Origin: Bacteroidales bacterium
GTDB taxonomy: Bacteria; Bacteroidota; Bacteroidia; Bacteroidales; UBA4181
Reading direction: 5' to 3'
DNA length: 64,000 nucleotides
Assembly: GCA_031275285.1 (NCBI GenBank)
Contig: JAISOY010000042.1
Span: 29,475-93,474, forward strand
Shown here: positions 26,501 through 29,196 of the stretch, in pieces
Layout: each line of letters begins with the position of its first letter
How positions within the stretch are numbered: position 1 is the first letter of the stretch
The notes under the pieces: generated by a model
Database searches by the model: none
What the model saw: only the letters and a program-made list of their open reading frames with translations
Told to the model about the DNA's origin: nothing
Made by a program: the position numbers and the translations under genes

Positions 26501-26543
26501 GGTTGTTTTTCCGGGTAAGATAAAATTTATACCCATCAGATAA
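20490..26543 (+). CDS. RHS/YD-repeat polymorphic toxin precursor (signal peptide, beta-helix, 2x PPC-like, RHS shell, variable C-terminal toxin)
   Basis: 2017 aa. The ATG overlaps the upstream stop by 11 nt. The hydrophobic N-terminus is LFWCLFIFLCLSMDISGQ. A DUF1565/pectate-lyase-like start follows: YVSPRGNDDNNGTQQAPFYSIQAAINAASAGDAIKLENGTYY. Many YD repeats are present (IDYFDGLGRPIQ, AYDGFGRE, YKYDGRGRTV, YDKLDRPV, YDAHDRPV, YDEKGRMV, YDHVGRPT, YNPLGQL, YDPIGRL, YDKMGNI, YDTSGKLI). The core end is ARMSDYTIGRWWVPDPLAEQYYGISTYTYTLNNPLKNIDPDGM (DPxGL-type), followed by a 250-aa unrelated tail. Confidence 0.9.
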   Translation: MRSNQLLTRMNMTAGLLSDSIHKLFWCLFIFLCLSMDISGQGSIPSDSVAANDEWMKKISGMTGVGCDTATMKQILQLLKESRDPAISGERRTQLDTRIGSLAKTGERAAYAASLPTTYRWYVSPRGNDDNNGTQQAPFYSIQAAINAASAGDAIKLENGTYYHTGRIYINKDVFLIGNVEDPSAVVIRPSGLGFYIYSCSPELHGMKITGGETGILINGGYPRFSHLVLTRHTRTVIYSDMTHVYTLENSLIFGNRVEGGSLIEMRPSGSAGGVVSVNNVTITDNEASCTFDLTGTALKELMISNSILYNPQTTDEIRYHSTGSYISMQYSDIYNKNRYSGSNILYAGNLIDALPDFEESDPGPTYRLSEFSPCIDAGHPYIQDLSRPPGMGEVRSDMGFYGGPSRVSLGFLPVTPGDELLSAIHIGTYNHDFSFADTTQSGLYTNFYYWIDGVDLFYKFTTTEWLDIEIDHCGSEVLDTKIMLLNAYGGNMTESGVRPGDKECSVNAGQAFLSVRNLPPGTYYVMNKMLADNNEEFYITIRGYFRGDRLENPVEVGTFGSGFYYTDTRNSSNYGNHYTGLPTNDIFHRFSITKMMNVEMSHCNSPRISQTRLYLLDAAGSLITGSEDYTGEGGCESPGQAYLKMDDLPAGTYYIVSEGYASDGDIRMNIHGYFRTVAPSAGFNYVHTIIPQEETSAIQGDSRSPSDYLETIDYFDGLGRPIQNVAVGSSPDGKDMITPVAYDGFGREAVKYLPYEAGDGTGSFRSAALTEQADFYRNGGTGPSSVTKSSTPFAVTVFESSPLSRVLKQGNPGGDWHPETGRVFRMYYKTNGSSEFRMWNITGTGAATGNYYAKGSLYRTETTDESNLTTILYENKQGKPVRQRIKYDSNTEYHTIYIYDHLDQLAYVLPPGVPDDVRSFTENDDVFLKLIYAYKYDGRGRTVRKHIPGAGWTDVVYDKLDRPVMTRTAAQKDSVLWRFTKYDAHDRPVMTGVISDNRERTVWQSLVNNCAYQWEERLDDGELEGYSNRCQPQVTLSDIHQFNYYDLYKNFTLPSGCSNRTRGLPTENRTRVLGSQEFYNSAWFYDEKGRMVQTQEQTAKGIDVIKNTYDFTGRLTASERTLEDVTVQTEQLYDHVGRPTDTRHRMDRGESVITTRCTYNPLGQLLVKRLHSTDGSSWLQEIDYTYNIRGWLTGINDGNAPGGSRQDAFSMRIIHNGTATVGDVTSKAQFNGNISSIRWRTKPPGTSATAVRGHAYAFSYDPIGRLTSAVYAADTLNNRSYNRYKNRYNESYTYDKMGNITSLQRNGMRGVIDSLTYSYDGNRLQNITESLSNGLQDLGFKDSVPGIKYLYDTSGKLIEDRNKDIRIRYNTLDLTGVIQHASTGKKLEYSYLADGRRIRKQFGTTTDRHYISGFEYEGDELKFISMPEGRIRKSGDKWIYDYFLTDHLDNVRVVLTTGQSGTQVYTASMEESNAIEETKYFNNVDNTRADRPYNYPDKNPLNTKLAKVPGKSRGPSVMLQVMAGDTISLSAQAFYNMDSSLPGSGLNIAPVVGSAIAALSGNTALAAGEFSTLAADLGATASTSAVLAPLPEKNEEDDSPEPNSGLNFVLYNRNFEIVESNTGVLPVSDKINRIQMLSGDQMIIQESGYLEVFTYNDAQTPVFFDNIELRHTSGPILEENHYYPFGMLMDMSYMPVAVNERNFYKYGRKELQTEHNLNWGDHGARMSDYTIGRWWVPDPLAEQYYGISTYTYTLNNPLKNIDPDGMENITIIGAQYDGLRGNKLMFANQGIRSLRRWSLLQSDESRSMVLFTGDYTEKQISKIESSVEKYGGNLIKVDSADEMINYVNSKSSENGQLSDARKNDLITDMEIFSHGEVGSIGFGYRTEQASAYELNDRNVTKFNSGAFDGTNSTITSYACRTALGNNSYHSYTNPMPMWTSSIAQSISDATGATVYAYGRRTNYSYTLGNPFERRVNPPNIHMIDGAAFTPNGAVRGVVSGYSPVVFPGKIKFIPIR
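21745..22515 (+). other. tandem duplication of a ~125-aa PPC-like (pre-peptidase C-terminal-like) module inside the RHS protein
   Basis: Copy 1 is 21745-22128 and copy 2 is 22138-22515. Shared, collinear motifs are: DLFYKFTTT / DIFHRFSIT; IDHCGS / MSHCNS; TKIMLLNAYG / TRLYLLDAAG; AGQAFLSVRNLPPGTYYV / PGQAYLKMDDLPAGTYYI; ITIRGYF / MNIHGYF. Confidence 0.7.
25791..26540 (+). other. C-terminal variable (toxin) domain of the RHS protein, caspase/clan-CD-like motif order
   Basis: 250 aa immediately after DPDGM (25776-25790). Collinear motifs are ITIIGAQYDGLRGNKL, EIFSHGEVGSIGF (His codon 26112-26114) and ITSYACRTALG (Cys codon 26247-26249). Confidence 0.55.
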
Positions 26544-27043
26544 TGAAAAAGAATATTTTGTACATATTGTTATTGGTCATTACCAACATGTCATGTAACC
26601 GTGAACCCAATAATTCCTGGATATCCAAAAAAGATTACCAGGGTTATCTGAATAATTTACCTGATGAGAATTTTTCAGAAAGATATACTAATTGTCAAAA
26701 TATTTTTCAAAAGGATCTTCTTTTTGAATTTGAGATGGATTCCAGGTTGGAATTGGATACATCAAATTGTACTTTTTTGATACTGCGCGGAGGTACTGTT
26801 TCATATAGAGGAAAATATAACAGATCCATTAAAATAGAAGATGTACGTTTTTGTTTGGATAACAACTTAACGAGAATAAGTTCATGGGCTTTTATATTTT
26901 TGGATAAAAAGACAGAAACAGTCTATAAATTCTATCAGAAGGATAAAGAAGTATATAATTTCTCTGATAAGGAAAAGATAAGCGTAAAGCTTAGCTCAAA
27001 AGGGTATAAAATTAAATTTGATGATGACTGGTTTTTCAAATGA
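26543..27043 (+). CDS. putative cognate immunity lipoprotein
   Basis: 166 aa. The ATG shares one nt with the RHS stop (TAATG). It has a lipoprotein-type N-terminus MKKNILYILLLVITNMSC and is AT-rich. I recognise no family. Confidence 0.6.
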   Translation: MKKNILYILLLVITNMSCNREPNNSWISKKDYQGYLNNLPDENFSERYTNCQNIFQKDLLFEFEMDSRLELDTSNCTFLILRGGTVSYRGKYNRSIKIEDVRFCLDNNLTRISSWAFIFLDKKTETVYKFYQKDKEVYNFSDKEKISVKLSSKGYKIKFDDDWFFK

Positions 27044-27208
27044 TTTCCCTGGTTCTGTATAATCTGTGGCTATATCTGTTTTTGGAATATATCAGTTGAT
27101 ATTGTTGTTACAAACGCGAATAGATTGATATAATTTATCCATATGTTTGTGAATGATATTTTGTTCTTTGAAAATATTGAGCTAAGGAAAGCATCACAAA
27201 GTAAATAA

Positions 27209-27946: not shown

Positions 27947-28360
27947 ATGAAATATTTGTTATTGTTATTCATAGTATTCATCTGTTATTCCTGTAAATCA
28001 GTCGAGCCAATCAGTAAAAATGAAGAACAGTCATTTTATAAGATAAAGAATATAAAGAAAGAAAAGTTTTATTATATAATAAGTGCTGTAAGAAATGATT
28101 CTTTATTTAAGATTATTCAAGACAGGGATCCATCAGAAATAGGTAATTGTTCAAATATAAAACCTGGGAAAAAATATAAATTAGAATTAAAAATTTTTTT
28201 CCCTCCAGATTCTATATTTGGGATACCGGTTACAGGTGACTATAGTACTCGAGTAAGGAGTGTCGGTTTGAAGGGAATTACTATTAAGATTTCTGAAAGA
28301 TATCATGATAGATTATACCTGGCTAAAAATTTAAAAGGATTATGCATTATAAAAGATTGA
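27947..28360 (+). CDS. small lipoprotein, hypothetical (candidate orphan immunity)
   Basis: The track ORF 27887-28360 starts at GTG. The internal ATG at 27947 gives MKYLLLLFIVFICYSCKS, a clean lipoprotein signal. Confidence 0.5.
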   Translation: MKYLLLLFIVFICYSCKSVEPISKNEEQSFYKIKNIKKEKFYYIISAVRNDSLFKIIQDRDPSEIGNCSNIKPGKKYKLELKIFFPPDSIFGIPVTGDYSTRVRSVGLKGITIKISERYHDRLYLAKNLKGLCIIKD

Positions 28361-28704
28361 AATATCAATTATTTTTAGAATATGGTAATGATTAAAATAA
28401 TATATCATTTCCGATGTCTCTTGTTAAGCGGAACATAAGAGATGAAAGTTAAAGGTAAATATTTTACAGTTCTGAATATAGCCAAATATGTAATTTGGCA
28501 GATGAATATAAAACTCACATACCTATATTGTAAACGAAAAGTATTTAGTTGATCTGTTGTCAGCTAAGTTCGGCATACCGGGTGTCACGGCCACTTCCTC
28601 CTTGCCCGAATCTGGACTGAACTCAGCGGAGTGTTCTCAACCATTGGAGGTAAAATTATTCCAGTGCATTTATTACACAACACTCATAAAAAGAAGAAAT
28701 AGTT

Positions 28705-29196
28705 ATGAAATATTTGACAGGTTTGTTGTTATTGATACAATCATGTTCTATGGAAAATGAAGAATTCATAAAAAAGATTATATCCGATTTTGATAGATAT
28801 AGCTTTTTTGTATCCATAGAGGTTGAAAGTCCTGAATACAGAGGGAGGGTAATTATTGAAAATGACGATTTGTATCACTATTATAATCAAACTCAAAATA
28901 TTGATAAAAAGAAATATCAAGAAATAATGCATAGGATGTTGCAGAAAGAACTAACACTAAAAATTAAAAACGAGGATTTTAATCGATTTAACTTTTTTAA
29001 AGTGCTTAATGATGCAACTATTATTGCCAATACTCAAAAGGGTGTTGATAATTTCATAAAAGTCTATTTTAATGGAAGGGTATTGAAAGATGATATTACA
29101 GATAATGAGCGTTATGCTATTATAAATCAATTGTATCATTTCAATGTTTTAAGTAAAATTGATGATGAAACAGGTTATTTGGTTCTGTATAAATGA
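28705..29196 (+). CDS. small lipoprotein, hypothetical (candidate orphan immunity)
   Basis: 163 aa with MKYLTGLLLLIQSCSMENEEF (lipobox-like ...QSC). It is AT-rich. Confidence 0.5.
   Translation: MKYLTGLLLLIQSCSMENEEFIKKIISDFDRYSFFVSIEVESPEYRGRVIIENDDLYHYYNQTQNIDKKKYQEIMHRMLQKELTLKIKNEDFNRFNFFKVLNDATIIANTQKGVDNFIKVYFNGRVLKDDITDNERYAIINQLYHFNVLSKIDDETGYLVLYK

Follow-up and report, generated by a model that had tools for sequence, protein, structure and literature searches.

Why should a single toxin gene be followed by a row of small genes for exported proteins, three of which have no toxin beside them? The question is raised by a 64,000-nucleotide stretch of contig JAISOY010000042.1 of a Bacteroidales bacterium (GenBank assembly GCA_031275285.1), hereafter the window, in which the gene for a 2017-aa RHS/YD polymorphic toxin (20490-26543, plus strand) precedes four open reading frames (ORFs) on the same strand: ORF1 (26543-27043, 166 aa), ORF2 (27209-27787, 192 aa), ORF3 (27947-28360, 137 aa) and ORF4 (28705-29196, 163 aa). 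The window spans positions 29475-93474 of the contig, here called C96, within an assembly of 5.54 Mb in 225 contigs (Bacteroidota, 40.5% G+C). A sequence-only reading of this DNA had described the four ORFs as an AT-rich, same-strand array of mutually dissimilar genes, a description that is borne out throughout. The ORF list gives the same coordinates and strand, the ORFs have a G+C content of 26-30% (0.26-0.30) against 48.5% in the RHS gene and 40.5% in the genome, and BLASTP detected no significant pairwise similarity among them. Pfam and NCBIfam scans of ORF1 to ORF4 gave no match above the cutoffs.

We consider it highly probable that ORF1 is the cognate immunity gene of the RHS toxin gene, and that behind it lie three orphan modules in decay, each of which has kept its immunity gene (ORF2 to ORF4) and lost nearly all of its toxin. 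The evidence comes from external loci with homologs (L numbers), other genomes of the order (G numbers) and contigs of the same genome (C numbers).

Toxin-adjacent homologs and toxin remnants of ORF2 to ORF4

Homologs of ORF2 to ORF4 are found 0-40 nt after the C-terminal toxin domains (CTs) of RHS proteins, and these CTs belong to three zincin-like protease families. Such cognate positions are occupied by homologs of ORF2 in L006/L007, of ORF3 on C68 and in L021 and L022, and of ORF4 in L001-L003 and L025-27. Upstream of the same genes in the window there are stubs only, with no cognate toxin in cis. The sequence-only reading had seen no remnant of an RHS core or CT in front of the extra ORFs; this part of it has to be revised, given an RHS-core stub at 27860-27934, a toxin stub at 28637-28702, a junction element at 27077-27176 and a weaker candidate at 28604-28621.

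ORF4 is a putative orphan immunity lipoprotein whose partner elsewhere is an RHS CT of the Pfam Peptidase_M91 type. It has 38 homologs (36-77% identity), most with a short lipoprotein N-terminus, and in L025-27, L001/2 and L003 these are preceded by intact RHS genes or by orphan tips of the form ..HELLGHG..TTYGGKPIPANLLHDTHKKK followed by a stop codon. Intact M91 CTs before ORF4 homologs occur on metagenome contigs and in Cytophagales. Scores against Peptidase_M91 are 29.8 bits for L001, 34.9 for L003 and 27.2 for a toxin encoded on C214, compared with the Pfam gathering cutoff of 25. In the window, the last 21 codons and the stop of such a toxin survive at 28637-28702 (plus strand), reading STIGGKIIPVHLLHNTHKKKK before the stop. 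This stub is identical to L001 at 13/21 amino acids (E 1e-4) and at 80% of nucleotides over 59 nt (E 5e-6), and it ends 2 nt before the ORF4 ATG, as intact toxin-immunity pairs do. The M91 tip before the ORF4 homolog of L004 (Myroides) is frameshifted, and in L028 a 45-codon toxin stub precedes the homolog, beside a phosphoesterase gene. Placed in order, these sequences make a series of apparent decay visible, from intact toxins (L025, L001, L003) through the frameshifted tip (L004) and the 45-codon stub (L028) to the 21-codon stub of the window. The AlphaFold2 model of ORF4 is of high confidence (pLDDT 92), and a comparison with the PDB gave no structural neighbour.

The spacer in front of ORF4 also contains junction element B (28428-28513, plus strand), which is common to C143 and C40. 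On C143 the similarity is 86% over 88 nt, in a position after the immunity gene of the RHS gene there; on C40 it is 84%, about 35 nt before an RHS stub. A G+C-rich patch follows (28557-28636, plus strand; 55% G+C over 28557-28650, in a region otherwise of 27-33% G+C), within which 28604-28621 (GCCCGAATCTGGACTGAA, PESGLN) matches the C143 RHS gene at 16/18 nt and is a weak candidate for a core stub.

Two of the external loci have further features of their own. In L001:1-1686 (ENA ERZ28573671 scaffold_245), the orphan RHS-M91 tip and its ORF4-family immunity gene are preceded at about 100 nt by the 3' end of a gene for a tyrosine recombinase. In L004 (Myroides sp., GCA_054871685.1 contig 9, positions 1-16480), orphan RHS tips and small genes are arrayed on one strand over 16 kb, and members of both the ORF3 and ORF4 families are found in this orphan array together with the frameshifted M91 tip.

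ORF3, likewise a putative orphan immunity lipoprotein, is paired elsewhere with RHS-tip CTs bearing the motif (L/M)HE(V/A)TE. A paralog in the same genome (48% identity, C68:1288-1716) lies 8 nt after the ORF for a secreted toxin of 326 aa, which combines an RHS tip motif with a CT containing MHEATEAY. In two other genomes of the order, G231 and G147, ORF3 homologs stand directly behind the same CT family (LHEVTES/AY/F), and in a third the homolog is an orphan between unrelated genes. In front of ORF3 in the window, an RHS-core stub of 25 codons (27860-27934, plus strand), reading FVILNENNLVRTHTGILSVDDKINK, matches core aa 1609-1634 and runs in frame into the ORF3 start. Compared with an RHS fragment on C40, the stub is 65-68% identical (E 2e-5 by tblastx and 1.6e-9 with PAM30, both against the whole genome). 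The same spacer holds a 23-nt core, GTCTCGTCCTGAAATAGCGTTAC (27827-27849, plus strand), of which identical copies follow closely on unrelated immunity genes elsewhere in the genome, in three arrays that belong to a different YD family (C145 about 1990, C184 about 1552 and C51 about 124-101). A hairpin at 27817-27853 was considered as a terminator and dropped, as the other copies of the 23-nt core do not preserve it.

ORF2, a putative orphan immunity gene with a signal of the signal peptidase I type (...SSA|QK), has ten homologs (59-71% identity), all metagenomic and all with the same signal ending, ..SFA|QK. In L006/L007 the homolog (71% identity) begins 0 nt after an RHS gene whose tip contains SHEAYGHAYIY, the motif of the partner CT. 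An orphan RHS fragment follows the homolog of L008 by 10 nt, and in L005 the homolog stands alone between genes for a histidine kinase and a glycosidase. The spacer between ORF1 and ORF2 contains junction element A (27077-27176, plus strand), which is 79-91% identical to the sequence in front of orphan modules with toxins on C116, of which there are at least four, and which is also present on another contig of the genome, C38. Towards its 3' side the element is similar to RHS codons 1663-1674 (23/26 nt), and it holds a Bacteroidetes-type -7 promoter box, TATGTTTG, at 27142-27149; no such box was found in the spacers of ORF3 and ORF4. The sequence 'SLVLYN' at 27046, proposed as a stub from a pairwise DNA alignment, was discarded as not significant against the genome.

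Stubs or junction elements in all three spacers match the junctions of orphan arrays elsewhere in the genome that still bear toxins (C116, C40, C143). Among these, C116 is the one toxin-bearing array that we tabulated in full. It contains six repeated modules, each consisting of a tip of 278-376 aa and an immunity gene of 25-33% G+C, and the low G+C content of such immunity genes rests on this array. Four of the modules open with MVITESGYLEVF..VFFDNIELRH, and two are truncated further into the core end.

The M91-type secreted toxin of C214, which is followed by a weakly ORF4-like lipoprotein, aligns with the partner tips of both ORF2 and ORF3 at 32-38% identity. This similarity suggests that the three lost toxins were related zincin-like proteases, yet the immunity proteins ORF2 to ORF4 are unrelated to each other. 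Two further observations concern these contigs. C68:300-1280 and C214:24815-25750 encode small Sec-signal proteins (311-326 aa) of only three parts: a short N-terminal segment, the RHS tip motif PDPLAEKYY..YIDPDGRK and a CT of zincin-like type. Each has a lipoprotein immunity gene after it and a paralogous ORF before it; judged by this layout, they look like 'mini' secreted RHS-tip toxins that dispense with the RHS shell. What looks like a second decayed array lies on the minus strand of C40 (34000-37500): behind an M91-like tip and an immunity gene come element B, an RHS stub that covers core aa 1618-1666 and a toxin-less set of three small exported ORFs.

The units in the window differ from classical orphan modules, which pair a core-end fragment with a complete CT: only 0-25 core codons and 0-21 CT codons are left. 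The immunity ORFs are intact, match their homologs in length and are under purifying selection, with dN/dS relative to their relatives of 0.17-0.41 overall (0.35-0.41 for ORF2, 0.22 for ORF3 and 0.17-0.20 for ORF4). This asymmetry between intact immunity genes and decayed toxin parts is what retention for defence predicts. With the toxin parts cut to 0-25 codons, the units can no longer donate a tip, so that only an immunity function can remain.

The resident toxin, ORF1 and the probable site of action

The RHS gene encodes a Sec-type N-terminus, DUF1565, DUF6443 and YD repeats. The repeats and the Rhs-associated core (aa 1683-1767) are supported by matches to PF05593, TIGR01643 and TIGR03696, the last at aa 1683-1767, and the tip motif PDPLAEQYY..NIDPDG occupies aa 1738-1766. 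The core has many paralogs in the same genome; the CT that follows ..NIDPDG has none. This CT (25794-26540, plus strand; 249 aa, aa 1769-2017) has homologs of 45-51% identity that form the ends of RHS proteins in three other lineages, namely in a genome of Schleiferiaceae and in metagenome-assembled genomes (MAGs) of Polaribacter and Cytophagales. SHG (His107-Gly108) and SYACRT (Cys152) do not vary among the three aligned homologs. The AlphaFold2 model, for which three sequences were used (pLDDT 65.5, pTM 0.72), is an alpha/beta sandwich in which H107-G108 and C152 each lie 2-3 residues past a strand (E101-105 and E146-149, respectively). Its best PDB neighbours in Foldseek are caspase-11, -7, -4 and -1, with weak scores (E 1e-2, TM 0.33-0.36), and a comparison of the CT profile with PDB sequences returned no match. 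The Pfam family DUF4347 is similar to the CT at E 2e-4, below the cutoff. DUF4347 is uncharacterised, and one protein with this domain has been listed as a putative type VI secretion system (T6SS) effector in Pseudomonas aeruginosa (PMC8262886). With moderate confidence, based on the predicted fold, we regard the resident CT as a putative cysteine protease of caspase fold (clan CD-like). No T6SS parts were recognised next to the RHS gene.

ORF1 is the candidate for the cognate immunity gene of this CT. As the sequence-only reading had stated, it starts at the last base of the RHS stop: the TAA at 26541-26543 gives its final A to the ATG of ORF1 (TAATG, a 1-nt overlap). A word-indexed search of 5.8 billion proteins returned only ORF1 itself, with no homolog, and its relatives came to light solely by way of the genes next to CT homologs and by searching with a profile. 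In L009, L010 and L011, the gene after the CT homolog is separated from it by a 1-nt gap or overlaps it by 4 nt, and encodes a lipoprotein of 161-164 aa that aligns with ORF1 (BLASTP 1e-16 and 6e-4). Run against 1.84 billion representatives, a profile of three ORF1 homologs recovered 94 clusters (50% identity), all of about 150-165 aa. Of the N-termini, 16 were inspected, and almost every one has a lipobox Cys at its end. ORF1 therefore both lies immediately downstream of the CT and co-varies with it in L009, L010 and L011. With this result, the check that the sequence-only reading had proposed, namely whether homologs of the small proteins adjoin RHS toxin genes elsewhere, has a positive answer for all four ORFs, in other genomes or on other contigs.

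The N-termini of the four proteins are consistent with export. Those of ORF1, ORF3 and ORF4 read MKKNILYILLLVITNMSC, MKYLLLLFIVFICYSC and MKYLTGLLLLIQSC, respectively, and ORF2 has a long basic n-region followed by ...LFVLISVSSSA|QK. Within each family, the hydrophobic N-terminus and its Cys (or the ORF2 signal) are conserved. The earlier view that all four proteins carry exported or lipoprotein N-termini agrees with this family-wide conservation, and in the strict sense of a PROSITE-type lipobox pattern it holds for ORF4 only, with homologs of ORF1 and ORF3 also fitting. Because all four immunity families carry conserved export signals and their partners look like proteases, the partner tips probably act in the envelope of the target cell. 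Most of the immunity genes of C116 have no signals, which supports envelope action for these particular tips. The suggestion of the sequence-only reading that the relevant toxins act outside the cytoplasm fits the export signals and the protease-like partners (one caspase-like and three zincin-like), and we keep it as an inference of that kind.

Several features flank the RHS gene and its array. A 982-aa YD-capped protein with a Sec signal is encoded at 17552-20500, overlapping the RHS start. Paralogs (42% identity) occur on C108 and C143, and the C143 copy lies directly upstream of the RHS paralog there; the protein therefore seems to accompany RHS genes of this type as a fixed partner. ORF5 (32861-33463), possibly one more stray immunity gene, encodes a lipoprotein-like protein of 200 aa with 28% G+C, 3.7 kb downstream of the array and past the genes for an M23 peptidase and WbsX-like proteins; a search of 300 genomes of the order gave it weak homologs only. 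The neighbouring M23 peptidase has a lone ortholog (45% identity) in one same-genus genome, in a different context.

Formation of the array

We propose that each ancestral module would have consisted of a junction sequence, an RHS-core fragment, an alternative toxin CT and an immunity gene. Internal deletions, with end-points that differ between modules, may then have removed nearly all of the core fragment and the toxin, so that each module retained its junction and a short stub in front of an immunity gene that stayed intact (ORF2, ORF3 or ORF4). The resident tip would be a caspase-fold cysteine protease and the three lost tips zincin-like metalloproteases, all presumably acting in the target-cell envelope. 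The immunity proteins, if expressed, would be exported, three of them as lipoproteins and the fourth by means of a signal-peptidase-I signal, and could inhibit the matching protease by binding to it in the periplasm. ORF1 would guard the cell against its own toxin and against the toxin of its kin, and ORF2 to ORF4 might neutralise the toxins of neighbours that still fire older or foreign tips. Read in this way, the array is a well-preserved yet ordinary outcome of toxin swapping between rival bacteria.

Several points weigh against this account or parts of it. The PESGLN stub before ORF4 is weak, being reached in 1/300 shuffles against one chosen target, and the stub in the ORF2 spacer is a piece of a shared junction and not a clean RHS fragment. 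ORF1 and ORF3 themselves fall outside the strict PROSITE-type lipobox, and the source gene caller starts ORF1 and ORF4 at Met16, which drops the signal. The caspase assignment leans on Foldseek scores that are weak (TM ~0.33) and on a model of medium confidence for which three sequences were available. Finally, homologs in L005 and L023, as well as in L028 apart from its toxin stub, stand in non-toxin contexts, which is expected for orphans and is also compatible with other roles.

A different route to the same arrangement is sequential displacement, in which an incoming CT-immunity pair replaced only the old toxin in the main rhs gene and the old immunity gene was pushed downstream. This model was proposed for T6SS immunity arrays of Vibrio cholerae (PMC5361080), and it would also give a toxin-less array of immunity genes with 3' toxin stubs such as the 21-codon M91 stub. 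Displacement does not, however, predict RHS-core stubs or orphan-module junctions, and with the stub at 27860-27934 and elements A and B present in the window, we consider it unlikely.

An acquired cluster of the acquired interbacterial defence (AID) or rAID type, gathered by a recombinase or borne on a mobile element and independent of the rhs gene, appears very improbable. The low G+C content of the genes would suit such an origin, as would their absence from related genomes: the array DNA was not found in 40 relatives examined, including 14 same-genus genomes, which are too distant for a comparison of synteny. In L001, the ORF4 homolog also has part of a tyrosine recombinase gene, its 3' end, as a neighbour. 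Nevertheless, no tyrosine recombinase match was found on the 96-kb contig C96 and no recurring repeats between the genes (26400-29700), the array lies directly 3' of the rhs gene with rhs-derived stubs in it, and low G+C is common to the immunity genes of C116 and is hence not the mark of a separate island. The proposal of the sequence-only reading that the ORFs form an orphan immunity set is upheld by the homologs of all four that directly follow RHS toxin CTs elsewhere, and its likeness to AID clusters falls away with the missing recombinase and cassette repeats.

The other option that this reading had left, that ORF2 to ORF4 are unrelated small exported cargo with no toxin-immunity role, may be rejected as scarcely credible despite the blank Pfam/NCBIfam scans and the homologs between metabolic genes (L005, L023, L028), since three unrelated families recur 0-40 nt downstream of RHS tips in several lineages and a toxin stub accompanies the ORF4 homolog even in the 'metabolic' L028.

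The decayed-module explanation admits one extension, which we regard as something of a long shot: that the junction sequences (element A with its -7 box, the 23-nt core and element B) are functional module boundaries, serving as promoters or recombination sites through which Bacteroidota RHS arrays regularly make immunity-only cassettes. If this were true, spare toxin modules would be turned into independently expressed immunity-only cassettes, and the defence repertoire would grow in an organised manner and not by random decay.

Relation to known immunity arrays

In Enterobacteria such as Escherichia coli, Salmonella and Dickeya, orphan rhs-CT/immunity modules occur downstream of main rhs genes. 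The array studied here resembles them in its position 3' of a full rhs gene, in units that start with a piece of the core end and in the low G+C content of the immunity genes, and C116 of the same genome provides textbook examples of orphan modules as in Enterobacteria. It differs in that the toxin part of all three units is cut to 0-25 codons, that the host belongs to the Bacteroidota and that the RHS protein is of a Sec-signal, DUF6443 type.

In the T6SS arrays of V. cholerae, several unrelated orphan immunity genes likewise stand behind one active effector-immunity pair, close homologs of these genes are cognate elsewhere, and immunity genes have been kept where effectors were lost, sometimes with effector 3' ends left behind (PMC5361080). 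The carrier and delivery differ, being RHS here and T6SS auxiliary effectors there, and the spacers of our array keep core stubs and junctions, which argues for decayed orphan modules and not for direct displacement.

AID clusters are generally carried on mobile elements or lie beside a recombinase with repeats, and they counter T6SS effectors. Those of gut Bacteroidales, AID and rAID-1 (bioRxiv 10.1101/471110; PMC12247911), share with our locus the phylum and the arrangement of orphan immunity genes in arrays thought to protect against the toxins of neighbours. In contrast, neither a recombinase (on C96) nor repeats (in 26400-29700) are present here, and the partner toxins are RHS tips. The 'poly-immunity cluster' of the Stenotrophomonas vgrG6 Rhs locus (bioRxiv 10.64898/2026.07.13.738213) also has one Rhs-CT effector followed by a variable run of immunity genes; there the effector is a T6SS-linked PAAR-Rhs protein and the predicted toxins reportedly include nucleases and deaminases, whereas here the toxins are of protease type and the immunity proteins are exported.

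The presence of toxin-bearing orphan arrays and a toxin-less one in the same genome makes this an internally controlled case of immunity genes outliving their toxins, and favours the idea that cells keep orphan immunity genes as a defence against their neighbours. Four families with no Pfam/NCBIfam match can be putatively assigned as exported immunity proteins, and their pairing with one caspase-like and three zincin-like RHS tips points to targets in the envelope. Orphan immunity genes behind a polymorphic toxin gene are of a kind already known; what distinguishes this locus is the trimming of every spare toxin to a stub, together with the four exported immunity families that can be paired with protease-type tips.

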